DNA of 64,000 bases from PVC group bacterium (ex Bugula neritina AB1) (GCA_001730085.1 MDLB01000105.1:69-64068), one strand, 5' to 3'. Positions 4,154 through 58,700 are shown, counted from the stretch's first letter. Notes: generated by a model not told the origin, from the sequence alone. Program-made: numbers and translations.

Positions 4154-4261
4154 AGAAAGCTCCAAAAAATATTAAAATAAAATTAAAGTTTAAATATAAT
4201 TATTATATTAGTTTAAAATACTTATTTATAATAATATAAAAAAGATTATAATCATAAATAG
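4154..4261 (-). promoter_or_regulatory. Conserved 5' block of paralog B (promoter or 5' UTR).
   Basis: Aligns with 1942..2048. Confidence 0.4.
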
Positions 4262-7700: not shown

Positions 7701-10700
7701 ACTTAAACTACTCTCAACTGCGTCTTTTTGGTCATCTTCCGCATAATCCCGAAGAATATTTTTCATAACACCCAAAAGCTTACTTTCATCCTTTTCTTCG
7801 ATAGCAGCTTCTAGCTCATGCAAAGCATTTTCAGCAGCATTTTCTCCCATATTTTTTAAAACATCCACCAAAGGTTTCATCTCTTTAAACTCCTCACGAG
7901 AAGTCAATTCCCCCATGAAAGCTACATTCAAATGCCCCATGCCGAACTCGCTCTTTTGTATACTTTTCTTGGGAGAAAAAAAGTTGAAGTTTTTGGCTGT
8001 TTTGATGAGATCATTCCCTCTGCCTTTCCCTAAAATACTTTTAGAGCCGGTTAAGTCATTATAAGATTTTTTTAAGTGAGCGGCCTGAGCATTGCTCAAA
8101 AGCCTTTCCGCTTGATAATTATGTCTACCCTCTACCATTTTGGGTAAATCTTGTTTAGGATGAACCATCGCATTTATAAGTTTACCCATTTCAAAAAGAC
8201 TTTGACTTCCAGATAAAATTCCCCCTTTGGGTGTTGGAACAGCGTTCTCAGCCGCAGCTCCAACTCTTCCTGTTATGATCACTTTTTTCGCGAGTCTTAT
8301 CTCTTCACGCAACGAGTGTAAATACTCTCTCAAGACAGGAAGATCTAACGGAGACAAGTTTTTCTTAATAAAAGACATCTGTTCAATCGCCGAATTATAA
8401 GCCTTTCTTAAACCTTCGATAGCTGTTTTTTGGTGTGACTTCAACTCAACATTTCCAGAATCATTCCTATTGAACTTCGCCAAAACCTTTCTCATCACAT
8501 AACGTTCTTTTTCTGACATTTGGGTATTAGACATCATTTTCTGCAAACTCTTTTTCGGATAATCAGATATCATACTTGTCAACGTGTTATATGTTGTTGA
8601 AAGAAGCTTTTGGCTCTCATTTTTTATAAGGTTCTCCCCAAAAGATCTTGACAACGGAGATTGATTCCCTTCGAGTGTTTTCAAGAATGTTTCTGGTAAA
8701 AGCATGAGGCGAGAGTGGTTATGATTCGCAAATTTACGGTCTCTCCCATAGGCCTGCCCAAAGTCAGAAAATGTGGTATCTTTTCCAACGAAATTCAAAT
8801 AGCTCACAGGGCTAGACTCAAGAGAACCTATGTCCCACCCAAATCTTAAAGATTTATTCGTCGCTATAAGCAATCTAGATAGGTCAAAATCTTTCAACAT
8901 TTCTATATCAATATTGGCTTCTTTCAAAAGAGCTAAGTCTTCGGGGTTCACTTTTTTATGTAATTTTTTGGCTTTCAAAAAGTCAACAATCGCTTCCACA
9001 ATCTTTTTGGAATCCACATTAGGGATCGTATTATTATTGATGATTTGATTAAAAGAACGACCTGAAGCTGTAGGGGGAGAGCTCACTAACTTGAACTCGC
9101 CTGTGTTGCTCGTATATTCTAGTTTTAAAAGCGAAGAGCCCGACCAAAGACTTTTTCCCACACCTATATCTTTCAAAGCATTTATTAGAGAATATTTTTG
9201 TTCCGCAAGACGCTTGATTTTGCTCTGTTGAACAGCAGAAGATGTGTACATATCCGGTTGCGTTGTAACATTCACACTCAAAAGCAACTGGAGCAACTGA
9301 GAAACACTCTCCTCATTCCAAAAGTCTTTCTTTCCTGTTTTTTCTTGAAGCATTTTTGTTAATGCACGTACAGATGCCTTTTGATTCTTATCCAACTCTT
9401 CTGCCTTTTGATTCTTATCCAACTCTTCAAAATTTTCTTTTTTGTTTGCTGATGCTTGTGATGCTTGTAAAAACGCATCCATATCTTTCAAAGATTTCTC
9501 CAAAAGAGCTTTGGAAGATGGATCTTTAAATTCAGGAAGAAGCTTTTTCACCTCCGAAAATTTAGAAAAGATAGCTTCTTCTCCCATGATCTCACTGTTT
9601 TTGATTTCGCCGGGAGTGAACGTGTCAGTCCTAGGCGTTATCATTTCAAAAAGCTTTTGAACTTCTGATAGGTTCTTAGATTTTAAATATGTTATGAATC
9701 CCTTTGACCAGTCTTTAAAAGAGATTATCTCTCCATCTGACCAGTTTTTATCCAAGCGATCGATTTCTTCTTGTTTTTTCTCGTACTTTTTCTTTAAGTC
9801 TTGTATTTGATCGAAGTTATTCTCTGCTGAATCATTCGTTAATTTTTGGATGTCTGCCTCAAGCTTATTCATCTCCTTTTGTATATCTCTTTTGAGTTTG
9901 TCTTTCAACTGAGAGCCAGGATAATTTTGATAAAAAGATGAGAGCTCTCGGTAAAGAGCCTTCCCACTAGGTCCATACATCTCTGGACCCATTGTTTTAA
10001 GATAGAAAGTGAATATCGAAATGTCTTGCCCAAAAAGCTTAGCCAAAGTCCCAAGGGCACTTCTGGATTCTGCCCCTAAAATAAGGTGGGCGATTTTTGA
10101 TACAGGTAGTGTTGTCCCTGTCATATAGAGAACATTTCCACCTCTCCTTTGGATTTCATCAATGATCCCTGTCACAGAAGACTGCAAAGAGTCGGGTGAG
10201 GTTCTCACAAGATCTAGCCTTTGTCCGTAAACTTTATCGACATCCATTTGGATGATCTTCTTGTAATAAGAGTCTTCATTTCTATGAACCGAAGATTTTT
10301 TCTGGTGCCTTCTTATATAACTTTCCACCCATTGACGAGCCTTAGCTCTAACAAAAATTTCATGCGCCGGATCTTGGGCTTCTTTCTTAGAAGAAAAGTC
10401 TAATTCTTTTTGGATAATATCCCTAACCTTTGGATCGGATTCACCTCCTCTTCTAAAGTAATCTTCCAAACTGTTTTGTTGTGTCGCACTTATAACAACC
10501 TCCATCGCTCTCATTTGCCAAACTCTTGGATTTGTTTCGGCGGCTTTCTCATTTTTCATTCGTTCTTTTGTTGCTAAATTTTGACCTTCACGAGGTTTTA
10601 TAACCGCTTCAAAGACCGCAGCCAAATATGGATCACTGTGCTGTTGATCAATGCTTGTTATATCTTCTCTGGCAGGTTTAACCATTGCTCTGTCTGCAAC

Positions 10701-25700: not shown

Positions 25701-28700
25701 TTTAATATCTGACAAATGATTTTTCCAAATATTTTCATACTCTTCAGAAAAAAGTTCATTCCCATACTCATCAAACTGAGCATCTTTTCTAAAGGTCGAT
25801 TTTTTCACAATAGCTCCCGTATTATCTATCGTACTTTTGTTCAAATGAGACATAATGATTTTCCCATTCAGATCATAAAGAAGATTAAGCTTTTTTAAGG
25901 AATTTATCTCATAAGGTTTATTCGGAGAGTCTGGTGTAAAATTCATCACTGTATCAAAAGTAAGTAAATCTCTATTATTGATATCCTTGACCGTCTGAAG
26001 CCTATGGCGTACTTCTTTGGAAAACTCACCTCCCCCTAGATAGGTCTCTTTCGTAGATGTGAACTCTCCCGCATTCATATGACTATCAAAACTGTAGTTT
26101 TCTACGGTTTCTCTAGATCTTAATAGACTTTTTTCAAAAACCTTAGTGCGCACTGCTCCATCATTTATATCTCCCCAATCGCTATCCAAAGCAAGCTCTT
26201 TATAGGTCAAATGAACCTGTTTCGATATCAACGCTTCTTCCATATCATAATCAATGTTTGTAACTGTATAATTAACAGTAGGCACTCCCAAGGTTTTTGA
26301 AGCACGTATAGAAGACTTTTCTTTACGCGCTTCATTATAATCCGTATAACTCACAAGGTTTTTATAAACCTCCTGTGCTTGCTGACCATCTCTTACTAAA
26401 TGCCTTTCTTTCAAAGAAAAACGTTTCAGACCATGCCAATTCTTACTGGGAATATTTTCATCATAAAAAGAATAATAACTATTAAGTGTTCTGGATAAAG
26501 AATAGTTATCCGGATCAGCAACTTTATCACCGGACATCTCTGATTCTTTAATAACAAAGTCTTTTTCAATAGCCTCTACAAGTCGACTACCACGAAATAT
26601 ACTTTCTTTGATTTTTTTGGATTGTAACTGGTAATCACTATCTCCCTCACCTAAACCTATTGGCTTAGAATTAACAAATAGCTCCGAAACTGTTTCTAGA
26701 GACCGCCCTCTCGGATCAAAAATGTTCATGTTGTCCACTTGATAATATCTGCGATTTTGATCTATGATTTTGCTATTCATCTCTTGATACATCGCAGAGT
26801 TGTCGAGATATGTTCCTCGTTCAGGATCAATCAAAATCAACGACTTGAGCCTATCTTCCATATTATACATATACGTATCAACACGTTTCTGAGTGATCCA
26901 GCCTGTACCTTGCTGACGTTTATATTCGACTTTATTCGTCATCCGGTCTAACTCAAACTCAGAACCCATGCTATCCTTTACATGAAGAGGTTCTGAAAAG
27001 TCTATCGTTTGATAAAAACTTATTTTTCGATTGAATTGGTCATATACAATATCATGTTCCAATTGGACGATCTCCGAATAAGAGTTTTGACGAGAAAGGT
27101 CAATATAACTATCTTTCTGTTTCCGTGTTTTTGTTATTTTAGCGCTTTCTTTCACGCGTCCAAAAGAATCATATTTGTATTGATTTTCCTCGATACGTTT
27201 AAGTTTATTGGTGAAAATCTCCCTCTGAGCAACGGACTTTTTAGAACCATCATAGGTACGCACTTCATCTTTCAAAACATAGTTTCTAAAGTAAGCACCA
27301 AGATATGCTTTTTCCAAAAATTTTCTTTCCACAAGATCCTTTTTTCCCTCTTCCATGCTAGGTCGATAGACATTAACAGCTTCTGATATTTTTAAACCAT
27401 TGGCGTTTTTGTTTATTATCGCTTCTTCATGTGAAACCTTGATCATTAAGTCATCATAACGTACTCTCATTTCCATTTGAGCAGTATCATCTGAACCATA
27501 TGCGAAAAACTTTGTTTGATTTCTTCCTTTGAACTCAACACACATTGTTGCCTTTAAGGCATTTTCCAAGGACTCATTCATCCCTTCTATCTGAATGAAA
27601 GCATCTCTCAAATCTTGAAAATTATTATAAGTCCACGCATATTTACCTTCACCTTTCGGAATAATCATGCCTGTATCTATCAATTTATCCAAAAGAGATT
27701 GATCATAATCTTTGGCTAAAAGCTCTCCATGTGAATGTATTGAGGTCTTTCTCATGAAAGCTTGGTCCAAAGACCTTACAGCAAAACTATCAAGACTCTG
27801 TTCACTTAAACGTCCTGTTTCGTAATACTTATAACTTCCTTTTTCAACTTTAGAAATGGTACCGCTTTCATCAGTAACAACCTTAAGGTTTTCTATTTTT
27901 CTAAAGTTTTCATAGGTATTTTTAATTTCTGTTATTTTTTGTAAGTTATTAGAAACAATCCCTACTTCTGGTGACCACTCCATCAAATCTTCATAATGAG
28001 TTACCCCTTTAAAGCTAGCATTTATGGTATGTCCATTCAAAGTGGTACTCATTTTTGAAAGATTATTGCTGTATGTGAAATATTTTTCTTCTGTATGATC
28101 TTCGTTATAACTTTTCAATGTTAAAGTTTCATTCAATCCATTGCCTTCCTCATAAACAACTTCTTTCATGATTTTGGCATTGGCTTCGGGGTCTTTGCTG
28201 CTATAACCTTTCCAGGATCTTTTGATATGTCTATGCGTCCCATCTTGAATGGCATCTTTACTTTGATAGATCAAGTTGTCAACCAGATCATATTTTCTCT
28301 CTATCTCTTCAACCAAGGTAGAATCTATCGAACTCGGTGGATTTTTGCTTTTGGAAATGACTTTTTCAAAAGTCAAACGATTGTATTGATCATAAGTTTT
28401 AAAAGATGTTGAGGACTTTCTAAGCCATGTTCCGGGTCCTGCCCAAGTGACTCTTCCTGTGATACCTTTAAAGCGCTTAGCCTCATCATATTTACCTTCT
28501 AAAAAGATATCATCAACAACTGTCCCATTTTTTTTGAGCCCCACTCTATTATCTTCTCTCAAATAATACGTATACTCTCCACTATTGATCATATGCCCAT
28601 TGATCAAAATAGGGTCTTCTCCAGGGGCTCTTTCTCTGATTTTACCTCTTGTTAAAATACTTTGATGTCCCCAAGAAAAAACATTCGCAAAAGATTTTAA

Positions 28701-37700: not shown

Positions 37701-40700
37701 GGTATAGTTATGAATAATAGCTCTCTTGAGTATCTTTTGATCTTCATGAAAAAATTTCCATTCACGATTACTCAAAAGTTGCCCTAATTCCGAATAAACA
37801 TGATCAAAAGTTTTTATCTCTTTACGTGACAAATAGTCTATCTGATGATTTGTCTCTACTTTCAAATTTTCATCATATGTCAATATTTTTCTGGAATCTT
37901 TCGTTTTTGTGAAGTTTTGAAAAAGTGCCTGTTCATCAATTTGATATGTATCCTCAGTCATTTTTGGTAACTGATTCTCGCTTAAAAAAAGAACACCATC
38001 TTTTTGATAACTTTTTTCATAAAGATCTGTAACCATTCCACGTGAGTCAAATTCACGAAACTCTTTCAATGTTATCTCTGTTTTTCCTACAAGATGAATT
38101 TTTTCATAAAGTTCAATTAAGTAAGAAAACTTTTCGAACGGATCCACAATCCAAGAGCCATCACCTCTAAGCGTATGTATATTGTAAGCTTGCATAGTAG
38201 GAACTAACTCTGCAGCTAAATCCTTTAGCTCCATCAAGTGAGCGTTCTTATTTTTAATCATCTCTTCAGAGGGTAAAAGGGGTTTATTTAACAAAATTTT
38301 GTTAGCAACTTCAGCTTCCTCAATGCTAAAAACATCATTTTGATGAAGCTCTGACAATAGCAGTTTGTACCTTGTCAAGCTGTTTAAAAGATCAGGGTTT
38401 TCTGAAGTGAAGCGTTTAAGATTCATCAAAAAGTTTGTATTCAGTTTCTGCCTAATAGGGAATGCTTTCGGGTTAGAGAGTGAAGAAAAATCGAGCTTTT
38501 CAAGGATTTGATTAAGAGAGATCTCCTCGCGTATAACAAACCCATGATCAACCTGATCTTTTATGTTATAAAGATACGGGCCAAAAAGCCCTTTGATAAA
38601 CTTGTTCTTATCTACGACTGTTAAACCTTTAAAGCTATCCATCCACGCATTGAAAGCAGCTTTAACACCTTGGATTTCTGGATAATTTTGCCCTGTCAAA
38701 ATCCCTCTGATTTTTCTCAAATCACTTTTATTCAAATCTGAAAGACTTTTTAATATATTTTGCAAATTTTTTAACTTTGAAGCAAAATAGTCCAAGGCTT
38801 CTTGCTTAGGCTTCGAGTAATCGTTATCATATAAAAAATATTTTTCTAAAACCTCACGAGACATCGAAGAGTCCCAATTTAAAGAAACCTCTTCTCCATC
38901 ATCTTTTTTACCAAGATTAAAACCTTCAGGCAATAACTCTGTTTCATAAACTTGAGCATAGCTTCCCTCATCTAGCACCACTTCATACTCTTTAGCTTTT
39001 CTTTTGAAATTATAATTGAAAGTGTTTTTACTATACTGCAAAGTTTCCCATAAACGGTTTTCAATATTATCAGCTAGATTAAGCTTAGCCTTAAACTCTT
39101 CCTCTGTGTCATCAATAGCATCCTCACTCCATGTGCTATGAGGTATCCCTTCTATATAATAGTCAATCAATCCGACAGATAATAAGTCTCTTTTAGGATC
39201 AACCCCAAACGGTAACTCATAAGAAGAAGTGCTCAGATCCAAGTTGATCGATTTTTTATGATAATCATAGATCACCTCTTTCACTTTTTTCTGAGAAAAA
39301 GCATAGGCGTCTTCATCGTCCGCAAAACGATATTTTGACCGGCGAGACATATCCCATAAAACCTGTCCATCATCATCATATTTGCGTTCATTTTCTATTT
39401 TTATCTCATCTTTATAATATTGACCTCCATCAAATGAAACATCTTTGATCTGACCCCAACGGTCATACTGTCTAGAAAGAGATACAGAAGAAGTTATAAG
39501 ACCTGTGTTATCTCCTCCTGTCTTCTTTTCATCATCATAGGTATCATAATGAAACGCATAAAAATAAACTTTTCCTGTGAGACCGATAATATTCCCTCGA
39601 TCATCTTGTGTTGTTTCCAAAAAGATATCATTCAGTATATTCCCTTGCGCATCTTTGATACCGATTTTATTATCGGGACGAAGAAAATAACTCATCTGTC
39701 CATTATTTAAAACATGCTTACCAATTCTCACAAAATCTTCCGGTAAGCTTGCCGAAGAGATTATTCCTCCATCAATATCAAAAGGAGCATCAAATGAAAG
39801 TGAAACAGGATTGTTATTTTGATCTTGAAGCTCTTTCAAGTTAACCCTAAATTCATCTTCTCTTATATTAACTATTGTTTTTCCATTTTTATCATATTCG
39901 TACCTTCTCGATATATCAAAAATTTTGTTTGCCTTCGCGTAATCTGTTTTTTTGACTTTTATGAATTTTTTACCATAAGGATCATACCCTCTTTCAAAAC
40001 TGGCAAGAAGTTGCCCATTATGATCATACGCTCCTTCATTGATTTGATATCTATCGTAAAAAAGAGCCCTTTCATCAAAAGCTCTCCCTGTTCCTAAAGC
40101 TTTTTCACTTTCCGGGTCCGTCAAAAACTCTGGAAGATCGAAATCAATACGACTTTTATCAAAAGCTAACCAAATAACATCTTCTGTCCTAGCCCCATTG
40201 TTAATACGATCTTCACGTTTTTTAATCAAGCGTCCTTGATCATCGTATCCCATGTCCCATGTGTAACGGAGAGAAACGTTATTAGCTGAATCATAAGTTT
40301 TCACATTTTCTGATATCCTTTGCCCTAAGCGGTTATATGCTATAGAAGAATATTCTGTTTGACTAATAAGATCACCTTGATCAATAAAGTCGTGATAAGA
40401 GAGTAATTGTCCATTTCGGTTATAAACCATTTTATCTCTACGGAAAGACTTCGAAACCCCGCCCTCTTTTTCTTCTTTATCTAAAAAGATATTTTGTCCA
40501 AGATCGTTATATCTCATATCCTTAACAAAAGTTGAAAAAGGTTTATCTTCACTGTTATAGCCGTCTTCAATGTAGCTCCTTAAACGCCCCCACAAATCAT
40601 ACTTAGTATCTTTACGTCGCGTCCGGATTTTAATATTTGGAGCAGCACTACTCGTGATTTGATCAAAATACCCAACCATTTGGTTCGCGACATTGTAATG

Positions 40701-43700
40701 AATATCCGAACGCGTTGTATAAGTTGTTTTGTTTAGGAAAGTATTGTATTTGTCAAAACCTTCTTCATAGTTAACCTCGCTATAAGCTGTGTTAAGCCCC
40801 GAAGAGTCATAAGAAAGCGCTTGCCAAATACGTGTTCGGGTCAAATCAGGATTCTTTGTGCTCTGTTCTTTTTCTTGAAAAAACCTCATTCTTCCAGCTG
40901 GATCATAGGTCATCGAATCTCTTTCTGTGAAAACTTTTTCTTCAAAAGATTTGGCAAAAAAACTTAGTTTTTGTTCAACCCGTCGATCATAATTCAAATA
41001 TGACCTGACCTCAGAGAAAATATCTGCACTGTATTCATCAAAAGGAGGTTCTAAAATAAACTCAGAAGAAAAATCAAGTTTATCAAACGCTTCTAAAATA
41101 TTATTTTGATTATCAATATAGCCTTTACTTCTCAACGATGTTATTAGGTCAAGCCTTTCTTTCTCATTGGAAAAAATTTCCGAAAAAGCATCTGCATTCA
41201 AAAGCCCTTTAGAATCAGAAGTTAAGTGATCCCAATACTTTTCCATAATATTTTTTTGGGAGTTAAACTCTATTGAGTTTATTGGTCCAAAAAGATCTGA
41301 ATAAACCAATTTGAACCCATCTTTATAGATAATTTGTCCATTCCTTAAAGATTCAAGTTCATCTTTAGTGAAATCAGTTATATCTATCTCGTACTCATTT
41401 ATTAGCAAACTTATCTTTTCCGAAATATTTTGATATGATTTTAATTGACCCAAATCATCATAAAGCATACCTATCCTTTGATCGATCTGAAGAAGCTCAG
41501 GCTTATCATCAGTGCTAATCTCTTCTTTATATCCGTTTATCTGATTGAGAGGGTTGTATTCAATATCTGTCCTATGGATTATTTTGCGCTGCATTGGTGA
41601 ATCAGAGCTAAACTTTTCTTCCACATAAGAGTTCATTTGACCGACATTGTTATATGTGATGTTACTTCGAACCGTCGTGTCCTTGGCATCAAATTCAAAA
41701 CCTATCCCAAACTTATGATTCACATCGACATAACCAAGGAGTTTTCCTGTTTTAGTATAGCGTATATCATTCCGTGTATTCATTTCTATAATATATTTCT
41801 CATTAGCGATCAATTCTGGGATTTTTTGTCCATAAACATCCAAAACAAAATCTCCCTCACTATGTTTTTTCTTAAAGAAAAGATCGGGCCCCAAAGATGA
41901 TGATTTTCTTATATAAATGGCTTCACGGGTTTTAGGATCACCTGAATCATAATAAATAATCGGGTATGACAAAGATGTGATTTTAGAAGAAACATCTATT
42001 TTCGCAACAGAACCATCCTCTGTATAAAGAAGCTTACCCTTTTCATCAGTCATTCTAAGTACGTCATTGGCTTCTTTCATCACAAGGTTGCCTCGACTAT
42101 CCCTATAGGCTATTTTTCCTGACATATATATCTTTTCTAAATTGTCAAATCCTACAAAGGCTTCCAAACCTCCTTTGTGAGTAAAAAGAGTAAGGTCATC
42201 CGAGGGAAGCTGTCCGTAAAAAGCTTGATAAATTTTACCTTCTTGGATATAAAAAAGATCCTCACCTTTCTCACTTTTCAGAGCGTCTGAAACCCTGTGT
42301 GTATCAAAATAGTAAGGCTGATTTTCATCATATTGATCCTCTGCATAAACCTTAAATTTCCCTGTTTTTAAAGGGTTTCCTTTTTGATCAAGAAGATAAG
42401 GTTGATTATTGATTTGATCTTGATAAGATGACTGTCTTCCGAACTCATCATATGTTATAAAGTTTCTTTTGACCCTTTGATATCGATTGATTTCTTCTTT
42501 ATTGATATCTTTTTTATATTGGAACTTTTTAAATAAGAGAAGTTCGTCAATATTATCTCTAGCTAAAACAGTGCCTTTATCATCAACATAAATATCTTGC
42601 AAAGAAACAGCTTCTCTTGTCAAAGGATCCGAAGAGTCATAGATATTCTCCACAAAAGATTCCTCGAAGGATCGCTCTTTTTCTGAAGAATAAAGACCCT
42701 GAAGCTTTTGTCCGTCCTTGTCATACAAAACAATTTTATTCCCATCAACATCATAAAGAGATTTTGATGGGTCCAAAAGTTGATATCCTTTATCATCTTT
42801 AACAACACGTTCAAAAGAAGATGACTCTGATATTTTTTGCATAATATCTTCTTGCATCTGACCCACAGAGTCATACAAAGCATTCGGGTAATTTTCTCTT
42901 AAAAGTTTAGAAATATCATAAAGCTGATTATCTATCCTGATTTTGCTCATTTTGAAAATGATATTTTTTGAAAAGATGATTTTTTTTAATTTTAAGATAT
43001 CTATAACATTTTCAAAGCTATCTTTGATTTCTAAGGTTTCACCTCTTAAAAGTTGCTCTTGTTCTTCAATATTCAAGCTATCCCATTCTTCGGGAAGTTC
43101 TAAAAGACTCTCGACTTCATCAAAGAAAGACCCTCTTTCATGATTTTCGTCATCATAGGAAATCTTTTGTCCGAAACGGTTATACTGTGTATTTGTTCGT
43201 TTAGTCTCTGTTACTTTTTTCGTTTTATCATTTTTCACAAACTGTAGGTAAGAAAGCTCATATCCTCGAGAATCATACTGCGTTCCTTTTCTTAAAGTAT
43301 GCGTGATCTCTTCAATCTTTAAAACTTTTTTAACCTTTTTTAAAGTCAAAAACTTTTCAACGCCACCTCTAAAAACTGTCAACTCTTTTTGATCCAACAA
43401 AGCGCTTTTTTCATCAACTGTTAGATCTTGAAAGCTCAAGCTTTTATCTTCTGAGATATTCTCATAGTCATAAGAATATTGCTCATTCGTTCCTGTATCT
43501 ATTTTCTTATTCGTTTCATTAAAAGCTATTTCTTGACCAAAACCATTGTAAAGAATCTGCGTTCTATCAAGTTTGTCAATCGTATTACTAAGGGTGTTAT
43601 AAACCGTTTCAGAAAAACTCGTCATTTGTCCAAGATTATTATAAATAACATTTCTTCTATGAATGACTTTCTTATCTTCAAGTTTTTGCCTAACCTTTTT

Positions 43701-46700: not shown

Positions 46701-49700
46701 ATCATTGGGAATATTATCCTTAACACCTTGAGATATATTTTCTATCATTCGCTTTGCTTCATTCAAAAGCAAAGCCGCTTGGACCTTTCTCTCAACATCC
46801 TCCGGTGTCAAGTCAGGAAGATTCTCAGGAGACAGTGAAGGCAAAAAAGTTTTAGCAAGTTCATATTGTTTACTAGGACGCTCAAACATACTTAAGAGAT
46901 TAAATGGAGGGTTAACGGTATTGATAGATATATCGTAATCGGTTGTAAGCATCCCAGCATTAACCCAATCAGCAAAAACATTTGCTTTGTTATCCGAATA
47001 CATATCTATATCGTAATAAGTCATATCTATAGCTGAATCATCCAACAAATCTCTGATCCTTTTAAAGTTCCGCCTATAATCTCCCGTTACTTTCGTATCC
47101 TCATCTGTATGAAAAGAAGCGTGAATATGTTTATCCAATTCAAAGGTTGGATCTAACGTGATATCCGCAAAGGTGTTTTCTACCTGTTTTTTAAAAATAT
47201 CAATAAAGACATTCGTAGCATCTTGAAGGGTTTCACGATTATCCGAAGGGATCCTCTTAAAGATATTCAATACATCATGCAGATCAGTAGCTACGGCAAG
47301 CCTCTTAAAAGATTCCTCCCTCCAACGCTCACTTTTATTTTTAACAGATCTCATTTGAGCCACCTGAGAAGTCATCTCTGCATGGGCTTCCGAATATTTT
47401 TTTAAAAAAGTAGCGATCATTTGTTCGTGATATCCACTAAGGATTTCAAACCTTTTGATCGCATAGGTATAAAGAGTTTTTTGAATTTCATAGGATAAAG
47501 ATGCCTTAGAAGGCTGTGCTTCATTCACAGGGCTTAAGTGAGACAACGCAACCTTTGTTTCGCTTAAAGCTTGTTCCAAAGTAACATCGATCGCAGAGGC
47601 AACCTCATAGTCTTGACTGTTAAGGCTCTGAAAAACATCTTCTGTAAAGTATTCATAAACATCACTCTGTGGTGTTGATAGATTTAAGTTCTTCACTTTT
47701 TTTATCGAGGGATTGGTCCACTTTTCAAAAGTATCCAATAAAGCTATATTAGAGGACCTTGGAACAAACTTTTCACTCAAAGGTTTTTCTAGTAAAAGCT
47801 TTTTTTCTTCACTAATAAGCCTATCCATTTCGTCAAAAAAACTATCAACAGAATCCAAAACATGATACTTCATCATTTTTATTTTATGCTCTTCGGAAGA
47901 TACTAACATTTCTTTATTAGAACTAAAAAAGTATTGAATATGTTCATCACTTAATTCCGATATTTTATCCTTATAGTTTTCATTTTCGGCTTGAACATTT
48001 TCAAGATTACTTATGAATTTTTCTATTTCATAGCGACGTTTACTCGCCTTATTCTTTTCTAACAATTTTTCATAATAATTATTCATAGTTATCTCGATAC
48101 TCTCACGCACACTTTGCGTAAGAGAAATATTGAACTTTGGTTTAAAATGAAATATCTCATACCAATGAATACCTGCTTCACGATCTTCCTGACTTGCTCT
48201 ATCGTATTCAACCCTGTTCCCCTTCAAAAGCTCATCTTTTTGCTCTGCAGAAAAATTATCAATAACCCCTCCTATCTCCCAAAAGTTGTCCCACTCCTCA
48301 TCAGTCATAATTGAGGGTTTCTCGAATCGATCTTTCCATGCGAAACGTAAACCTAAGAAAGCCTCATCATCACCAAAGTAGCCATAATCTTCTAAACCAA
48401 AATACTCTTTCCACCTCTCGACTTCACCTGTATGGGAAGAATCTCTATCTGGTATCTCATACATACTTTCGGAAATAGAAACTTTTATTGACAGACGAAA
48501 GTCATCAATACCTTCTGAAATCAATTCTTTAGATTCATCGTATAAAGCAGGTGCTTGAACCCCATAACTAAAATCCCAAAGATTGAGTAGCTCCTCTCTT
48601 ATATCCTCTGAATAGCCTTTTTCAAAAAGTTTTGACTCTAAAACATTTTTGGAGTCAAAACCCCATAATAAAGTCCCTTGATGATTAAAGTTTTCTCTAA
48701 AAATACCTTTTTGTATCAACGAGTCTATTTGATGGTCAAAAAGTTCATAGTCAATAGACAACGCATCTCGATGGATAGTTCTATGAGCCTTACCAAGTAA
48801 AATGAGTTGATCTTCGGAAGACATTGTTTTATAACCATATGCCGTACTTAACCAAAAAGCTCTCCATTGATTGGCGTACGTAACAGGAGAACCATTTTCA
48901 TAAACGGTAAACTCTTCATCTTTCCAACCACTCGGAGCCTCAAAAAAGTTTTCTATCTCATTCCCAAATAGTCGTTCAATGACTTCAAATTTTTCTAAAA
49001 TGATATCAATCCGATCATTGATCAATTCTTTTTCGTCTTGAAGTTTATAGATCTGCTCATCATCTTCAGGGGTGTTTAAAGTATTAATAGTCAATATGAT
49101 TTTATCTAAGGCTCTTCTTTCACTCGCAAGGGTCTCTTCTAACTTCTCTTTATAATCATTCGTCACTTTTTCCATGATTCCTAAAGATGGAAGAGCCTCG
49201 GGGTCCAAACCTTCTGCGTTTTTAGCGACAATAATTTTATACATAAGTTCTCTCAAAACATTTCGAGTTGAATCACTAATATCTTTTGACTCATCTAAAA
49301 CTTCCGCTATAATTTGATATTCTGAACCCGCATATGTTTGGATCTGTGTATCTGCTATAAGTTTTTGTTTTTCCTTCTCCTTTAACAAAGTGAAAATATC
49401 TTCTTTTTTCTCTTCAAAACCTGACGAAAGTAAAAGTTCCGAAACATCTTTCATCTCTAAAGTTTTATTCAGAATGAGACCCTTTTGTTCAATATACCCT
49501 TTACTAATAAGCTCTTCCCATAACATCTCCGGAGTTAGATTTTGTACATTTCCTATTTCTAAAAAAGAAAAGTCTTCTTTATCAAGAACACCTTTCATTC
49601 CCTTATTTTTTAAAAGATCATAAATCTCTTGACGATAATTAGAAAAGACACCTTCCATATCAAAAAATTGAGCAGCAGAAACATCTTTTATGTTATCTGT

Positions 49701-52700
49701 CACGACACCGAGGGTTGCTATATACTTGTTTTCAACCAACTCTTGCCATAGTTTTTCGGCTTGATCAGCGTCATCCCCAAAAATCATTAAATCTTCAGAA
49801 GAAATAAAACCTCGAGACATCTTAAAGACATCTGAAACTTCAAACCTTTCTACCAAAGAAGACGTCGCTAAAGAAAATTTAACTCTTTCCTCATTCAAGA
49901 TAACCTCTCCACCACTTAGAATAGACAATTTTTCTTCTTCATTGAGCTGACTAAACCCATAACTAAGACTGTTCCAAAAAGCATCCCATTTAGATTCATA
50001 TAAAACCGTTTCTCCCTCTTCTTCGACAGAGTAAGGATTTTCCCAACCTTCTGGAATCCTAAAAAAAGCTCCAATTTCCTCAACACTTTGACCAACTTTA
50101 TAATTTTCTTGGTCATATTCAATTTCTTGTCCAAAAATGTTATAAGCCATGTTGTATCGAAAACTGATATTTCTCACGTTCGGCGAATCTTGTTGAATGA
50201 TCGATTCATCATAAGATAATGTTTTACCCAAATCGTTATAAGATATATTTTGACGCTGATAATAAGTACTTTTATCGTTAGTGAAGTGTGCTTCATAATC
50301 AATAGAGAAATCATTATCAATCTGATCAATCATGCTCGCTGTGAAATCTTTTTTATCTAAGTTACCATCTTGATTAATATCAAAATTTTTCCACATATCG
50401 GGTACAATATTTAGTAAAAAATCATGAATCATTAGTGATTCTATAAATTCAAAGCTATAGTCATATTCCAAAGGTTGTTGGATACCAAAAAGTTTTTCAA
50501 AAGCAATTTTCGCTAAAACAACCTCCACTTCTTTAGCTAAAAAAATGTTTTTTGGTTCAAAATATTCGTTATAAGTCTTTTCTCCCAAGATATCTATCAA
50601 TTTAGATGAACTCACAAAGTACTCATCCCCAAAGGATTCTTTGTAATCTTTTCTTCCTAGTTTCTCCAACATCTCTTCTGCCAAAATCATAAAGTCGTCC
50701 ACAGAGTAAGAAAAGACTGTTTGTAATTTTTCATTCAAAGAAAAAAGCTGTTCTTTAAGGGCTTGTCCTTCTAAAAGATATTTCTGTGTACTCTCACCTT
50801 TCTTCTGGATTTTTTCGAAATATTCATTTTCTCTACCTAAAAGATCATAATATATATTCTTTTTTTCCCTAACCGTTACCATATCCGGAGATGCTGTACT
50901 TAAGTTCACTTCTTTATAAAACTCTTCTTGTCCAACTTTGTTATATATCGTCTTTTCCCTATGCATCTTATTGATAAGGTTTATTCTTCCTTCCGTAAAA
51001 ACTTCTCCTGCGGTTATTGTTATCATTTCTTCCCCGTCATCTGTCATCGAACTAACAAAGGACATATTTTCATGAGAAGCCACCGCATCTAAAAGATTTC
51101 TCAAATCTTCAACAGATGAAGATAAAAAAGTTAGAGTTCCATCTTTCTCTAAAAGAAATTTTTGATCTGGAGTAAGAAAGGATTGCATTTCCTCAGAAGA
51201 AGAAGCATACCTCTTAATCTCTGTCGTTCCCATAAGGTGTGAGGATGTCGATCTTTTGTCCAAAAGCCCCGCAACGTTGTAATGCATATCCGTAACGGTA
51301 TCAACTGTTAAGAGGTCTGGTTTGCTCAAATCTTTAATACTCTCCACATACCCTGTCATCTGTGAAAAGTCGTTATAAGTCGTTTCCGACCTCAGCCGTA
51401 TCTCTCTCGTGCTAAGTTTCTCTGTGATTTTAACCCCCGAGTATTCCTTAGTTCCTCCAAGGTTTAACAAATGATCCTGATATGTAATACGTCCCTCTTT
51501 GGAGTTTTCCCAAGCTTCCAAAATAAAATCAATTTCGGAATTTTCATAACCAAACTTTTGAAGGCGAAAAAGTAAATCTCCCTCCGAAACAACATTCCAA
51601 TACAAAGATTGACCGGTTTGGTCAGAAGGGTCTTGTATTAAAAAATTATCTTCAATCAAAGTAGACAAAACTTCATTTGATGTGATCATCTCTCGTCTAA
51701 TTTTAAAATCTAAAAGGGTTTTTAAAGATAAAACTTTCTCATGCGAAAGCTGATCAAATTCATTTGAATCGTAATAAAAAACTTCTTCATTTTGCTCATC
51801 CCACATGACCTTAACATCATCCCTATCGACATATCTTTTTTGTTCTGTTTCGGATAAGTTGTGCCACTCTTTATCCGTGATATAAAAGTTTGATAAACTT
51901 TTATTATCTTCGGCAACAAGTGTCTTTTTTCTTAAGTTTTGCAAAGCTATTTTTTTAAAAGAAGAAAAGTTTGATTTGATATCTATAGAAAGATTGTCCC
52001 AATCGGACAAAGAAAAATATTGATAGGTCCCTGCTGGATCTTTTTTCTCCCCCATCACCAGCATGTGTCCATTACTCAAAAGACTTTCAAAAATAGCGAC
52101 TTCTTCGCCATTTGTTTCTTTATTCATAATGTTTTGTTCATAAAAGTCTTTACTTATACGATAAGTATCAAAGTAACTGCCCCAAGGGATATTTTTTAAA
52201 GAATAAGGCGGAGCCAAACCAGAGGATCTTGTCAAAATATACCTATCCCCATCAATTTCTATTTGACCTCCCTCAAAAAGCGTTTGTTTATTCTCTAGAC
52301 TCAATTGATCAAACACACCATCTTTTGCCCAAAAATCGTCCCAAGAATCCGTGAAAGATGATGACGATTCATCAAAAAAAGTCTTCCAAGACATACGATC
52401 AAGATCAAAGTCCGTTTGCATTCCCAGAGAATCTTCTTGATTATAATCAGCAAAAGCATAGTAACGTTCAGCGACACCTTCACTATTTTTTGATTCTAAA
52501 TAACCTTTTTCATAACCACTATCATCGTAGTGTATAGACTTCTTTTCTATCCTCGTGTCAATACCTCTATGATCTTTATTATCTTCGACATAACCAATAA
52601 TTTGACCTCTAGCATTATAAGAGGTTTCTCTGCGGAAGCTTTGGCTTTTTTCATCTAAAGAAAACCTTTTATTGACTTTTTTTAAAACAAAGTTTTCATA

Positions 52701-55700
52701 GTCAAAATTTTGAAAAAAACTTTTCATATCTGATAAGCGCTCATTCAAAAAAACATCATCTGAAGGAAAATAAGTATCCTCAGATAAAATGTGAATGATG
52801 TTCTGCAGATCTTCATCTAAATGTTTAAAAACGTCCCCCCTCATTGAATCTATGGCATAACGATCAATAAAATCTTTGAACCACGATAAAATTTCTTCTT
52901 GAATATCCAAAGTTTCTCCAGCATAAAGTTTAATAATTTGCTCTTCTGTTAAAAAGTCTTTGCACCAAGTGTTTTCCTCTAATATTCTTCGGTCAACTTC
53001 TTCCCGAAAACTCTCACCTTTTTTATAAACTGTACGCCTATATGTATCTTGGTAATCAAATTTGCCATATGTTATGTCTCTCATTTCAGTCATAGTAACA
53101 AGGTCAGGGTGAACATTTGAGCGCTGGATCTCATTATAAGATCTAATATTTCCTCGTTGGTCATAGAACATATCTGTTCTCAAAACACTCTCATGAATAC
53201 TTTGAAGAACATGATTATCAAAATCATCATAAGCAAATCGTTGAATATTATCTATATAATTTGTATTTTGACCTAGCTTATCATATCGCATCCCCGTACG
53301 GATAGTTCGAACCGTATTCTGTGTCTTAAATGAGGTTGAATCACTTTCTCGAGCAAGGTTTTTTTCTATATCTATGTAACTAATAAGTTGATCCAACTTG
53401 TTATAAGACATATGAGTTCTAAGTCTAACTTTTTCAAAATTTGAATTTCCAGAATTTTTTGAAAAAGTTTTATAAGCAATTTCCTGACCTAATTGATTGT
53501 AATGAGTGTAAACTCTTTTCTCTTCCTTAAGATTGTTGATCAGGCTTTCTTCTTTATAAAAGATCCCCGCATCTGTTATCAAAGCGATATCTGATTCATC
53601 GATTTTTAAATCATCATTCAAGTCAAAATGCTCATTGTAACTGACACGATGTTCCATCATATCTCTCATCATAAGATAAGCTTCATATTCATTAAAAAAC
53701 ATATCAAATCCAACCTGTCCGAGCTCCACCTTTTTTTGATCATAAGAAAAAACAGCTCCATCAAGATATTTTCCGTTCCAGATGTTTAAATTAACAGCGA
53801 TTTCCTCTAAAACACCATCCGACACATCAACAGTAAGCGCCAAAAGGTTTTCTTCATCAATATCCAACGTCTCTTCAGCAGGGTAAGCCTTTTTTATAGT
53901 TTTCCAAATAGATTCTCTTTCACCTGAAGATAAGTGTCCTATATGATCAAAAAGAGCTTGTTTATTCCTAGCTTTTGGAACAACTGTCACAAAGTTGGGA
54001 TTAACAGAGTCTTCGACTAATAAGCTCATTTCAATCAAAGTTGAGAGGTGATCCCCAAAACGTCTTTTTTGTATACGACCACTATTATTGATAGCTTGGA
54101 TCATAACATCTATATCTACTAAGCTTTCAAAAGTATCAGTCACTTTAGAAGCGATCTCATATTTTTTAATCACATTCGATTCTTTATCCCATTCTTTATT
54201 TTCAACATATTTACGTTCCCAACGGTTCATTTTTTCAACTGCTTCTGGAACGTTATACCAATGCGTATCTTCGCTATAACTCTTCACTCTAAAATGATCA
54301 TCATATTTAATATCATAACGAAAGCGGTCATTTTTTTTATCTGGATGACTTGAGTCTTCGGTGACATCAGTATAAGATGTCATTAATCCCATAAAGATTT
54401 TTTGTAAATTCCCATATCCATCTACATAGTCTAGTGATTTATACTTTATATCTTTCCTACTTGTTACTTTTTTAGAAGCACTTTCTGAACCTAAAAGGCT
54501 GATATTAAAAGAAAGATCCTCTGGCACAGAATCAGGTGAAATATTTTTTCCATCCGAAGACAAATAAAGGCCATTTTCTCCAAAAAAATAATCCAATATA
54601 AGATCATTTATATTTTGTTGAGAGATATCGCCTCTCCCATTCTCTTTTAACCATAATTTTTGATAAATAGATTCTCTCAAAGCCTCCCTATCGTTATCAA
54701 ATTGATCTTGACTTATAATAAAATGATCACTTTTAAAAATATTTTTTCCAGCTTTAAGATCTCTAATAAAAACTAATGCTTTATTTCTATCAAAATCAAT
54801 TTGACGACTGTCTCCCAATAATATTTTTTTAATCCAAGAAACCTTCGCATTAATAGGAATATCCAACGGATTAATATCACCTCCACCTAAGGAACCTATC
54901 GGAACTTCATTAATATCAAGCGTTTGAGAAACCTGAGAGTTTTCTCCAAAAAGATATTCTAATATTTTTTGATTGATTTTTGATTGATCCAAGTCCCCAT
55001 CATTACTCTTATCTTCATCTTCAAAAAGACGCATGTCATCATAAATACTTTGAGCCAAATCTTGTAAAGCCCCTTCTTCTTCCTTAAGATAATAAAAATC
55101 ATATTGATCAAAGACTTTAATATCATTCAAAAGTGCGAAAGCTACCTGTTGCAAACCTCTCCCTTCATAGCCAACTTGCTGATCTTCTTCTCCTATTTTC
55201 TCACGTTCATTTTTATACGAACTCAACATATTATTTTGATCATATCTTCCTGACCATCGTTCTAATGTTTCCAAAAGCTTCTCGCCATTTTGACCATATT
55301 CACTTATCCTTTTAGTTTCTTTTGTTCTAAGATTCAAATCACCTTTAAAAAAAGTATTTGTTGTCACGATTTTTTTAGGAAAAGCTGTATCTAGACCATT
55401 AACATGTTGCTCTTGCTGAAGATCATAATCTATTGTTTTAGAAAAAACTTGATTACCACGCTCATCATACTCATCTTGCCGATGCGTTAAGACATTTTCG
55501 TTAATATTACCATTCGCATATAAAGTCAGATCTCCCTTATAAAATTCCTGCGCCTTACGATCTTTTTTTCTTTCCGCATCTTTATAAAGATAACAACCCT
55601 GAAACTTAAGATATCTTTCTCCTGTGGAAGCATTAAGCCCATGTTCATATGATCCTAGTATTTTTCCATCCGAATTGTAACCGTAATCTTTGATGATCAA

Positions 55701-58700
55701 GTCAGATTTCTCTAAACCTTTGGGTTTAAGATGATCCCAATTTATATCATCGATATCAAATCCTTTTGACAAAGGGATCGCCATATTATTTCTATTCAAA
55801 ACAGGTAAAATTTTTCCTTCTTCATCTTTATATTCTAGTACGGGGGTGGCTTGCCAAAAAATATCCAACCATTCCCTTCCACCTTCTTTACGAGATGAGG
55901 AATAAGAAAGCTCTAAGTCATTATTATCGTATAAAATATTCCGACGTTTCTCGACAACATTCCCATTCGCTTCCTGCTTCAAGTTTTCTCTATCATATTC
56001 AAACAAACGATTCGCCGGATCATATTTCATATTTTTCATTTTCACCATACTTAGAACACCATTTGTCGTGACATGCTCTGTATAACTTTGGTTCCTACCT
56101 TGAGCATCATATTGGATATCAAACCTATGCATCTGAGAAACATTACCGTTTGAGGTATTTTTACTAAAGTATTCTTTACGTTTATCCTCATGATTGTAAT
56201 GAATCGCTTGCATATCCATAATATAATCAGCTTCATCAGCATTTACACCTTCTTCCTTATAAGCATAAAGCCGTTTTTTATGGTCATAAATCATGTCTGT
56301 TTTTTTGCTAACGCTCTCTGTCATTATGGGATGTTCAATACCTTTTTTCTCCCTCATTTTGGTGATACTTCCCGTTAGGCGATCATCAACGTTATAGCCT
56401 AGATTTGAAACATCCATAACGGTCTCACTATAGGATAAAACTTTGCCTGGATCTTCTATACTTTTATAAGTTATTTCATTAGTATCTCTATACTGAAAAA
56501 GTTTCCCACGGATAACTTTTGTATCTTTATCTATCTCTCCGTCTTTGATCAACCCTTCATTTGTATAGGAGTGAATTCCGGTTGCATCTCTTATGCTTTT
56601 TTGGATAGAATCTTCAATCATTTTTACCCGTTCACCTTCTTTATTCAAAATCCACGTCTTACTTTCCTGTGTATCGGTATTGTATTTAAGAAGATTGAAA
56701 TCATCCTCCATTTCTCCATAAACAGCATCTCCCCAAGATTGATGAGAAATTTTCTCAACTTTGACTTTATCAACCTCAAGATCTTTCTGAGTGATCACAT
56801 ACCCTTTCTCATTAAGAGCTTCAAAGTATATATCTTTTTTCTCATTCAAAAAGTGTTCGTGATCAAGCAAGTCTTGAACAATATCGTATTCGTTTAATAT
56901 TTCATGAAAGTTTTGAGAAGACAAAAAGATGAGTAACTCTTTCGGGTCTTTAATAAGATTTTCCCAGTCTTCTTTTGTGACTTTTAGATCTCTATTTTTA
57001 TAAATAAAATATTTATATTCTTCAAATTTCGTATCCAAAAAATCATTAATAGAGTCATAAAAAAAGTCTCTAACAAAGCGATTCGGAAAATCTCTAATAT
57101 TGTATAAATCATTTTGGAGAACTTGAAAGATATCAATATCTTTAGTCTCTTCCGCCTGCGGCGTCGTTTCTAAAAGTCCTGATGTTTTTAAAAGTTTTTC
57201 CCATAGGGCTTCTTCTAGATTGATATCTTTAAAATCGTTTGAAATTTTATTCATTTGCAAAAGTTTGTGATTATTTAAAAAAGACTCAACTTGCACCTTG
57301 GAATCTATTAAGGCTTGTATAACAGCATTTTTCTTGTCTTCATAAATAGTCGAACGTAAAGCATTCAATTTCTTTAACAATGTTTCACTATAAGAAGAAA
57401 AGTCATCAAAGTTCGTATGTGAAATAGCGTCCCACTGAAACATTTCTCCAAAAAGGAAATCAAAAATATCTACACTAGTATTAAGTTCTAAAGAAGAAAT
57501 ATCCACATCAACTGCTTCTTGCAAGCTCTCTGGTTTTTCTAATTCCTTTAAAGCCAAGTTAATATATTCTAAATAAGAGTTCACTTTATCATCTTTATTC
57601 TGAACCAAAAGCTCTGTTTTTCTAGAGATTTTAGATAAAACATCAAGATCTTTTGCGGTTAAAAGACCTTTCTCATTCAAGTAAGCGAGCTTTGAATCAG
57701 CATCCTCCAAATCATCCCAAGCGTTAGAAACTTTTGAATAGATTTGTCCAAAAAGATTTTCTTTGCTGTTATATACTCTCGTGTTATGTTGGACAGTTCT
57801 TTTCTTGTAAAAACGAAGATTATCCCTATCATCATACATAGCATCATAATAAAGTGACTCTTCATCGACAATTTCGTTATTCTCATCCAATTTATATGAA
57901 TAAATTTTGTATTTGCTAACTTGTCCATTCTTATACTCTGTTTGGAAAACTGCTGTTTCCAAAAGCTTAAATAAAGAATCTGAATATTTGGCAAATTGTT
58001 TATCAATTTGAAAGTCATACTTTCTTTCTATTTGTTTAAAATGATCTGTGACAAAACCATCTTCCGTTATATATCCTCGTTGAATAAGGTCCCTCCAAAT
58101 ACGTTTTTTAGGCCCTCCAATGTTTCTTTTGCTTATTCGCCCTTCACCTACAAATGGATCCCATAAACCCCATTTTTCAACTTTGGTTGGAGATTGATTA
58201 GATATCGTTTTCTTTGTATAGCCTAAAATTTCGCCATACTTATTGTAGGCATATGATTTCTTTTGATCTGTAACTTGCTTAGAATAAGTTGAAATATCTT
58301 TTGAAAAATTTTCGTTTCCTAAACTTTCTTGATATCCACTGGATTTTTTATCAACAGAGTTAGCTTCCCATAGAACTAAAGTTTCTTCTCCATCACTTGA
58401 ACGCGTATGTTCCCGGTAAGAAAGAACCTTATCATTTTTCGCCTTAGGGCTTTCGAATAAATAAGAGCCCTCCCATGTGACATTTTCGACACGACCAACA
58501 TGATCAGTTACTATTTTTTCATATCCTAAAAGATTTTTATAAGCATCGTAAGGATTTCCTTCTTTTGACTTCGCTTCCCATTGCGTACGGGTAATATGCC
58601 CATGTTGATCTGTGATTTTTTCATCATAACTTAATAAATTTTTATCTTTGTCATAAGTGGCATTTCCCCACTCTTTGACTTTGGGATTTTTCCCATAAAA

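Follow-up and report, generated by a model that had tools for sequence, protein, structure and literature searches.

In the PVC group bacterium (ex Bugula neritina AB1), a 64,000-nucleotide (nt) stretch of genomic DNA (GCA_001730085.1, MDLB01000105.1:69-64068; the window in what follows) encodes a giant protein of 18,253 amino acids (aa), in which two modules, (a) and (b), recur among YD-type repeats. Both had been pointed out in an initial annotation, made from the sequence alone, as short units resembling no recognised repeat family. Our analysis bears this out: the copies of each module are homologous to one another, have boundaries that can be placed, an order along the chain and a distribution within and beyond the giant protein, and match no known family. 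They are most likely two separate small domains that fold independently. As small structural modules they form previously unannotated domain families that are not unusual in kind, and (b) is unexpectedly widespread. We propose, with belief and doubt in equal measure, that their role is structural, and saw no sign of a further one: (a) would cap the ends of YD blocks, and (b) would be a spacer in a giant membrane-anchored protein.

The open reading frame (ORF) of the giant protein occupies positions 4707-59468 on the minus strand and is stop-free. Residue n corresponds to nt 59468-3(n-1), and all features of the protein given below lie on the minus strand. The ORF encloses every module copy and the whole interval 48250-58110, to which the modules had been assigned. 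They do occur there, but three of the six robust copies of (b) lie outside this interval (nt 40989-41168, 25452-25634 and 22485-22598), and the fourth copy of (a) extends slightly beyond its start, to nt 48147.

Module (a)

The regular expression W..[FWY]W has exactly four matches in the 18,253 aa (aa 2376, 3161, 3535 and 3726), against about 0.15 expected from the composition, and each match has a tryptophan about 20 aa upstream and LSxEEKxxLLxG downstream. In a BLAST self-comparison, aa 2331-2406 pairs with aa 3681-3756 (E 2e-7) and aa 3131-3194 with aa 3504-3568 (E 1.6e-9). A hidden Markov model (HMM) built from any three copies recovers the fourth with 12.3-25.1 bits, compared with a null maximum of at most 1.0 bit; the null for both modules was obtained by locally shuffling the whole protein 20 times. 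Regex excess, self-matches and leave-one-out scores far above the shuffles together identify the two modules as genuine homologous repeats, whose copies align well beyond the short motifs by which they were first noticed.

There are four full copies of about 70-95 aa, all within aa 2332-3774, in agreement with the cluster of at least four that had been described. Copy 1 (aa 2332-2426, nt 52191-52475; leave-one-out score 16.5 bits) and copy 2 (aa 3118-3213, nt 49830-50117; 25.1 bits) directly follow YD units at aa 2276-2334 and aa 3069-3129, respectively. Copy 3 (aa 3490-3578, nt 48735-49001; 16.1 bits) is 48% identical to a metagenomic fragment (see below), and copy 4 spans aa 3686-3774 (nt 48147-48413; 12.3 bits). 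A tentative shortened variant at aa 5428-5495 (nt 42984-43187) comes after the YD unit at aa 5390-5449; it retains ...LPEEW and the helix LNIEEQEQLLRGETLEI and lacks the hairpin and the WxxFW helix, and BLAST pairs aa 3068-3155 with aa 5389-5479 at E 7e-9. The shorter core motif W..L s.EEq..LL.G..h.h is also found at aa 2173, 5349, 5465 and 6033. The last of these, FTKDELESLRNGQIIY (aa 6019-6059, nt 41292-41414), contains the core motif only and lies between the YD unit at aa 5963-6020 and copy 4 of module (b); similar stretches are located at aa 2159-2199 (nt 52872-52994) and aa 5335-5375 (nt 43344-43466). When the extra core copies were subjected to the leave-one-out procedure, aa 5465 alone was marginally recovered (5.7 bits versus a null maximum of 2.6). 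The sequence comparisons are only suggestive of real (a)-core copies beyond the four full ones.

The AlphaFold2 model of aa 3118-3215 (copy 2; 5-row alignment) is compact, with a predicted local distance difference test score (pLDDT) of 74.3 and a predicted template modelling score (pTM) of 0.63. It contains a hairpin (YSVEE/ETVLY), the helices KWDAFWN and EEEKLSIL, and a second hairpin (EVIL/ERVK). The predicted consensus order for module (a) is β-hairpin, tryptophan-rich helix (WDxFW), helix (LSxEEKxxLL) and second β-hairpin.

Module (b)

The initial annotation described (b) as a run of about 25 aa. It is instead a complete domain about three times as long: the conserved unit, LWxxLxxKGYIxxxGxh...F.L...F..Y..DIF.LL, measures about 60 aa, and an additional conserved flank, G-h-h-s-x-x-D-h, located about 20 aa upstream, brings the total to about 75 aa. 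BLAST pairs aa 457-503 with aa 3238-3287, 3316-3362 and 11286-11332 (E 1e-4 to 2e-6). An HMM seeded with four copies picked up two non-seeds, aa 6101-6160 and aa 12291-12328, and leave-one-out scores range from 10.0 to 36.0 bits, compared with null maxima of at most 3.5 bits.

Six copies are robust, and one or two more are probable. Copy 1 (aa 450-510, nt 57939-58121; 25.6 bits) includes the sequence RIWRDLIQRGYITEDG (aa 456-471, nt 58056-58103). Copies 2 (aa 3233-3293, nt 49590-49772; 22.2 bits) and 3 (aa 3309-3369, nt 49362-49544; 27.5 bits) are arranged in tandem with a period of 76 aa; the anchor of copy 2 lies 66 aa past the core anchor of (a) copy 2, and copy 3 includes WEELISKGYIEQKG (aa 3317-3330, nt 49479-49520). 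The positions originally quoted for RIWRDLIQRGYITEDG and WEELISKGYIEQKG were correct. Copy 4 (aa 6101-6160, nt 40989-41168; 14.6 bits), one of the two recruited by the HMM, sits between two YD blocks. Copy 5 (aa 11279-11339, nt 25452-25634) scores 36.0 bits, and copy 6 (aa 12291-12328, nt 22485-22598; 10.0 bits), also recruited by the HMM, is clear in its N-terminal half. It is followed by a probable copy (aa 12326-12390, to nt 22299; hhalign E 6.6e-4) in which LIENGYIRMN starts at aa 12329, the only one of the seven copies listed at the outset that is not robust. A probable divergent copy directly follows (a) copy 3 (aa 3568-3636, nt 48561-48767; hhalign E 8.6e-4 over 48 columns). Further divergent candidates picked by eye (aa 870, 2438, 2594 and others) mostly gave hhalign E values above 0.005 and were dropped.

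The AlphaFold2 model of copy 5 with its flanks (aa 11255-11345; 7-row alignment) is likewise compact (pLDDT 79.9, pTM 0.70). The prediction begins with a short helix; next come the main helix SSQVDFLWQSLVSK and a small hairpin (YILEDGSI), and a long helix, GALNIYREDVFDILFNSLT, closes the C-terminus. This corresponds to the predicted consensus of a short helix, the helix LWxxLxxKGYI, a β-hairpin (xxDGxV/IT) and the long C-terminal helix YxxDIFxLL. With pLDDT values of 74-80, the models of both modules are reasonably confident, and no PDB fold matches either of them: Foldseek searches of PDB and BFVD returned no significant match for either, the best E values for (b) being 5 and 0.9, respectively.

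Position relative to the YD repeats

The modules lie among YD-type repeats, as had been stated. An HMM grown from internal YD-type matches identified 18 YD units with the consensus ...ItYNklGQmlSYkEe...IkYDklGQliSYdE. Of the eight (a) or (a)-core anchors, six fall within 60 aa downstream of a YD unit, at distances of 13-55 aa (P<1e-5 for random placement). In three places (a) or its core motif precedes (b): the (a) copy at aa 3118 is followed by (b) at aa 3233 and 3309, that at aa 3490 by the (b)-like sequence at aa 3568, and the (a)-core at aa 6019 by (b) at aa 6101. A relationship between (a) and (b) themselves was considered and rejected, as hhalign found no profile-profile similarity.

YD/RHS repeat proteins include the BC components of Tc toxins and the teneurins. 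The sequence around (a) and (b) resembles them in a YDxxGQxxSY periodicity, which is visible to the eye and to our internal HMM; the Pfam RHS_repeat profile (PF05593) scores only 10.4 bits (E 0.93). The top Foldseek match of the (b) model, at the non-significant E value of 5, is an RHS BC component (4igl). Unlike in the known proteins, the YD blocks of the window protein are short and broken up by (a) and (b), and RHS core or plug domains were not found.

Given this arrangement, (a) could be a variant of the YD/RHS β-structure itself, with two hairpins continuing the sheet and a helical loop inserted between them. Such a variant would recall the exterior paired α-helices of the giant proteins of Candidatus Omnitrophota, for which West-Roberts et al. 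(bioRxiv 10.1101/2023.11.21.568195) report long RHS-like antiparallel β-helix tubes bearing exterior helices at regular intervals. Module (a) begins inside or directly after a YD unit, and its model opens and closes with β-hairpins and has helices in between. However, hhalign detects no profile-profile similarity of the YD unit to (a) (E 0.6), nor to (b) (E 0.16), two (a) copies are found in coiled-coil-like surroundings away from YD repeats, and the isolated model of (a) is compact, with the pTM given above. We consider a YD variant unlikely.

Relatives outside the window

An exhaustive phmmer search with aa 2580-3779 against 1.84 billion protein representatives returned 14 matches, which we rescanned with the window HMMs and Pfam. 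P0001, an incomplete protein (4,946 aa) from a metagenome-assembled genome (MAG) of Omnitrophota, contains dockerin repeats as well as five (b) copies arranged in tandem and repeating every 72 aa or so. P0009 (1,257 aa) is a TpsA exoprotein with a TPS secretion domain (E 3e-36) and at least seven tandem (b) copies. P0014 (locus L047, 4001-5506 (+)) is a 501-aa Peptidase_M50 site-2 protease of the RseP type, encoded in the conserved gene neighbourhood uppS-cdsA-dxr-rseP-ispG; it has two or three (b) copies in the periplasmic loop immediately before its single detectable PDZ domain, and these possibly replace the first PDZ domain. P0008 is a fragment with YD repeats and one (b) copy. Beyond the giant protein, module (a) was found in one metagenomic fragment only, P0005, whose 82 aa correspond to the module (49.7 bits; 48% identity to copy 3), and as core-motif matches in other YD proteins, namely P0007/P0020 (E 1e-3) and P0013. 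The other phmmer matches align to YD parts and come from Omnitrophota and Elusimicrobia MAGs and from metagenomes.

To find further carriers of (b), we scanned 596 Gb of DNA with a degenerate pattern of about 39 bits, back-translated from [LIVM]W..L....Y[IL]D..G.[VI]T..F, for which about two chance matches are expected. The pattern hit 46 genomic loci, and in 45 of these the (b) HMM also matched. The type III restriction subunits among them are described in the next section. The other carriers include a Bacillota protein with LamG repeats and three (b) copies; an Omnitrophota protein in which two copies accompany Glucodextran_B and cadherin-like domains; giant ORFs of Omnitrophota, Margulisbacteria and Saganbacteria; and outer-membrane and Big-domain proteins. 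L027 contains an array of eight (b) copies homologous to P0009, and in the Omnitrophota giant L038 a (b) copy that is 42% identical to copy 1 of the window is situated amid dockerin-like Ca-binding repeats. The HMM and database searches thus place (b) in Res subunits, TpsA, a site-2 protease, LamG proteins and giant proteins; it is not peculiar to the window protein.

Word-index homologue searches with aa 3118-3780, aa 15650-16850 and the alignment of 20 (b) copies found nothing. Scanning genome, viral and metagenome collections with aa 3118-3780 revealed no related locus, and there was no close homologue of the giant protein in any collection searched.

Module (b) in type III restriction Res subunits

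Among the pattern loci, 30 ORFs have the NPDW nuclease motif and 37 have at least one Res hallmark motif. These loci span Gammaproteobacteria, Desulfobacterota, Planctomycetota, Bacillota, Actinomycetota, bacteria of the candidate phyla radiation and an archaeon. The full-length ORFs are about 1000 aa long, and because all four that were scanned with Pfam (L002, L019, L037 and L044) carry both ResIII and RE_endonuc, we identify them as type III restriction Res subunits. The (b)-like segment occurs once per protein, at approximately aa 620-690, right after RecA2, where the spacer that separates motor from nuclease begins and where there is no Pfam coverage. In L002, L019, L037, L044 and about 30 other Res loci the segment is highly conserved, with the consensus LGQExSxxLWxxLxxxGYLDxxGDITxKFxPE..F.LELP...I.DEMKR.

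In the EcoP15I structure, aa 620-810 form a 'helical spacer' between RecA2 and the nuclease (PMC4490356). The Res proteins can be aligned to EcoP15I (4ZCF_C) at query aa 14-576 and 893-981 only, and the (b)-like segment falls outside both ranges. Since the search pattern itself forces part of the match to (b), we used shuffled segments with the pattern residues held fixed as a control. The HMM of the six window copies scores the Res segments with a median of 23.9 bits, compared with 12.0 bits for the pattern-fixed shuffles; a wider (b) HMM gives medians of 31.1 and 17.7 bits, respectively, and places 95% of the real segments above the 95th percentile of the control. The Res segment resembles (b) over its length (LWxxLxxxGYLDxxGDITxKF...FxLELP...IxDxhK), and from these sequence comparisons it is probably homologous to (b), most strongly so in the helix-hairpin half. 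The two proteins differ in that Pfam finds neither ResIII nor RE_endonuc in the window protein; only the module from the spacer region is in common.

Comparison with known families

No copy of either module reaches a Pfam-A or NCBIfam cut-off, which agrees with the initial statement that they match no known family. Single copies of (a) and (b) gave only below-cut-off matches to Pfam at E<=10, and among 20 copies of (b) no Pfam family matches more than one, even at E<=1; the same is true of NCBIfam. The weak matches of (b) lean towards helix-turn-helix (HTH) families: DEP (E 0.018), DUF7417 (E 0.004) and, among PDB sequences, the C-terminus of the Ada2 SWIRM domain (E 0.13) and eS10 (E 0.26). 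The wHTH-PRTase_assc profile attains 28.7 bits (cut-off 27) only when summed over the eight-copy array of L027, no single stretch of which passes. The (b) copies of the window score 15-17 bits against winged-helix families with cut-offs of 27-33 bits.

These matches raise the question of whether (b) is a divergent binding domain of the winged-helix/HTH type, which would bind nucleic acid in Res and, in giant and secreted proteins, extracellular DNA or a surface polymer as an adhesion or recognition unit. Every weak match of (b) points to HTH-like families, its predicted topology is helix, helix, β-hairpin, and it is present in a DNA-translocating restriction enzyme. The N-terminal half, consisting of a helix, a turn, a helix ending in GYI and a hairpin, resembles DEP (PF00610), wHTH-PRTase_assc (PF24409), DUF7417 (PF24192) and SWIRM. 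However, (b) adds a long C-terminal helix and lacks the canonical first helix, and its model gave no structural match of the kind expected for a three-helix bundle plus wing among solved winged-helix structures. The PDB is rich in such structures, and a canonical winged helix would normally find many neighbours there; the E values of the Foldseek search given above therefore make (b) at most HTH-like and not a demonstrable member. Furthermore, the conserved positions are hydrophobic or Gly/Tyr and include no basic surface motif, and DNA binding is unlikely in the periplasmic loop of the site-2 protease and in TpsA. On balance we regard a winged-helix binding domain as improbable.

Layout of the giant protein and neighbouring genes

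The giant protein has an N-terminal transmembrane (TM) helix (aa 10-28; from a hydropathy scan and reading of the sequence), followed from aa 130 to 12,700 (about 12,700 aa) by YD-type hairpin repeats mixed with other modules. Clusters of TM helices are located at aa 12785-13210, 13821, 14755-14997 and 15190; in total, the hydropathy scan shows 15 TM-like peaks. The C-terminal 3,000 aa contain a Walker-A-like motif, GIGKSKT (aa 15839, nt 11934-11954), and a DEAH-like motif, VDEAHMIG (aa 15981, nt 11505-11528), both recognised by reading the sequence and both in a cytoplasmic-looking part. The composition is biased (rich in K, E, L and S), there are only seven cysteines, and the G+C content is 33-35%. 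Pfam-A searches with the protein in four overlapping pieces returned no family at E<=0.01, and NCBIfam returned none for aa 1-5000 and 13501-18253. The ATPase-like region, aa 15700-16700, gave no match to Pfam SecA_DEAD (E<=10) or to PDB sequences (E<=1), and we dropped an assignment to SecA that GIGKSKT and VDEAHMIG had suggested.

In size and layout the window protein belongs with the giant membrane proteins known from Candidatus Omnitrophota. These exceed 10,000 aa and have numerous TM helices and a C-terminal divergent SecA-DEAD-like ATPase ('Archaeovorin', dockerin-type; West-Roberts et al., bioRxiv 10.1101/2023.11.21.568195). Roughly 15% of them are reported to have no database domain and to be Pfam-dark (bioRxiv 10.64898/2026.06.07.730766). 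The window protein likewise has the length and the TM helices, an N-terminal anchor, an RHS/YD-like repeat region, several TM clusters and C-terminal Walker-A/DEAH-like motifs, and the nearest relatives of its module region come from Omnitrophota MAGs (P0001, P0006, P0010 and L038). It differs in having no detectable SecA_DEAD, dockerin or other Pfam domain.

Other repeats are present in the giant protein. The coiled-coil part contains perfect or near-perfect in-frame tandem duplications (nt 15612-15755, 9375-9428 and 16350-16460), the stretches MDGTIPKISKILPNN, MDELSLRN(H/Q), EELDKNQKA and LNPEIQRL...KDLSSKIDRM each being present twice. They look like recent slippage or duplication events, in contrast to the old, diverged copies of (a) and (b). 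A third internal repeat pair, aa 6568-6674 and 10275-10365 (nt 39447-39767 and 28374-28646; BLAST E 9e-11; ...YFLRPDNKIGIKDAQGNILNDIFLE...), and a fourth, weaker one, aa 8279-8392 and 9546-9660 (E 3e-4), belong to neither module.

The ORFs flanking the giant ORF have no Pfam match either, and no tRNA or Rfam family was found in the window. Two paralogous ORFs, 418-1941 (-) (507 aa) and 2699-4165 (-) (488 aa), have near-identical N-termini resembling signal peptides and conserved C-terminal halves; neither has a Pfam match, and an exact look-up of the 507-aa ORF returned nothing. On the other side, the plus-strand ORF 61654-64000, which runs out of the window (at least 782 aa), encodes a membrane protein with an internal duplication, in which the unit SDILEQ...LW.IY.L.W...ENW.SLV.EF followed by a TM cluster occurs twice. 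Shorter, broken-looking copies of the SDILEQ/ENW unit at 60162-60674 and 60697-61230 (+) may be pseudogene fragments. The end of module (a), ENW/EEWDxFW, had been likened to the ENWE motif of these divergent membrane-protein genes. This likeness was not supported: the ORFs 60162-60674 and 61654-window end do contain FEENWE(N/S), but the 1.9 bits at which the (a)-core HMM aligns WENFLEELT are no more than chance; the remaining weak score of the (a) HMM on the FEENWE ORFs stems from an unrelated stretch.

Proposed roles of the modules

We return to the proposal that (a) and (b) are structural parts of a giant protein anchored in the membrane. At the C-terminal edge of a YD block, where (a) or its core motif sits, it would end or cap the stretch of β-sheet and lead over to whatever follows, in many cases a (b) copy. 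For its part, (b) would act as a rigid spacer, or as an exterior helical decoration, between YD blocks, and would not be catalytic. More generally, (b) is best read as an ancient, mobile helical module; it forms tandem arrays, like beads on a string, in secreted and giant proteins and probably makes up the first part of the motor-nuclease spacer in Res. Module (a) appears to be a lineage-restricted unit, a cap or exit element. The folds are predicted ones; that the modules lie outside the cytoplasm, with (a) as cap and (b) as spacer, is what we infer.

Several observations weigh against this proposal. Two of the four full (a) copies, at aa 3490 and 3686, have no preceding YD unit, and a wider family of eight '(a)-core' copies had to be set aside when the extra copies failed the leave-one-out procedure. 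The alignments used for AlphaFold2 are shallow and contain mainly internal copies; the models cover the isolated modules rather than a YD block together with (a) and (b), so that capping and outward projection go beyond them. The topology, outside versus inside the cell, is suggested by the hydropathy scan and by analogy, and (b) occurs in both cytoplasmic (Res) and extracytoplasmic proteins. As regards Res, the EcoP15I spacer gives no sequence alignment to these proteins at the (b) segment, the (b) model does not match 4ZCF in Foldseek, and the C-terminal half of (b) on its own scores at the level of the shuffles with the HMM, its hhalign P value against Res in the expected register being 0.014.

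That the modules are mere chance recurrences of motifs that are short in a very long protein rich in K, E, L and S can be dismissed as vanishingly improbable, given leave-one-out scores of 10-36 bits against a null of at most 3.5, BLAST pairs down to E 1.6e-9, and the independent presence of the modules in unrelated proteins of other organisms.

A bolder reading would make (b) a new ancient superfamily, comprising the Res spacer and surface arrays that bind ligands such as extracellular DNA or envelope polymers of prey or host, and (a) a new terminator domain, determining how long each YD β-sheet segment is. We think this quite unlikely to be correct; if true, it would mean a new class of adhesion repeat for episymbiotic or predatory bacteria such as Omnitrophota.

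Because nothing we found points to a new mechanism or system, the two modules are of value for annotation and structure, not for concepts. Module (b), which connects cytoplasmic and extracytoplasmic contexts, merits a family model of its own; such a model would annotate the uncovered segment of many Res subunits as well as the arrays in TpsA and LamG proteins and in the site-2 protease. Giant bacterial proteins are largely unannotated, and two building blocks with boundaries, consensus sequences and models provide handles for parsing them.

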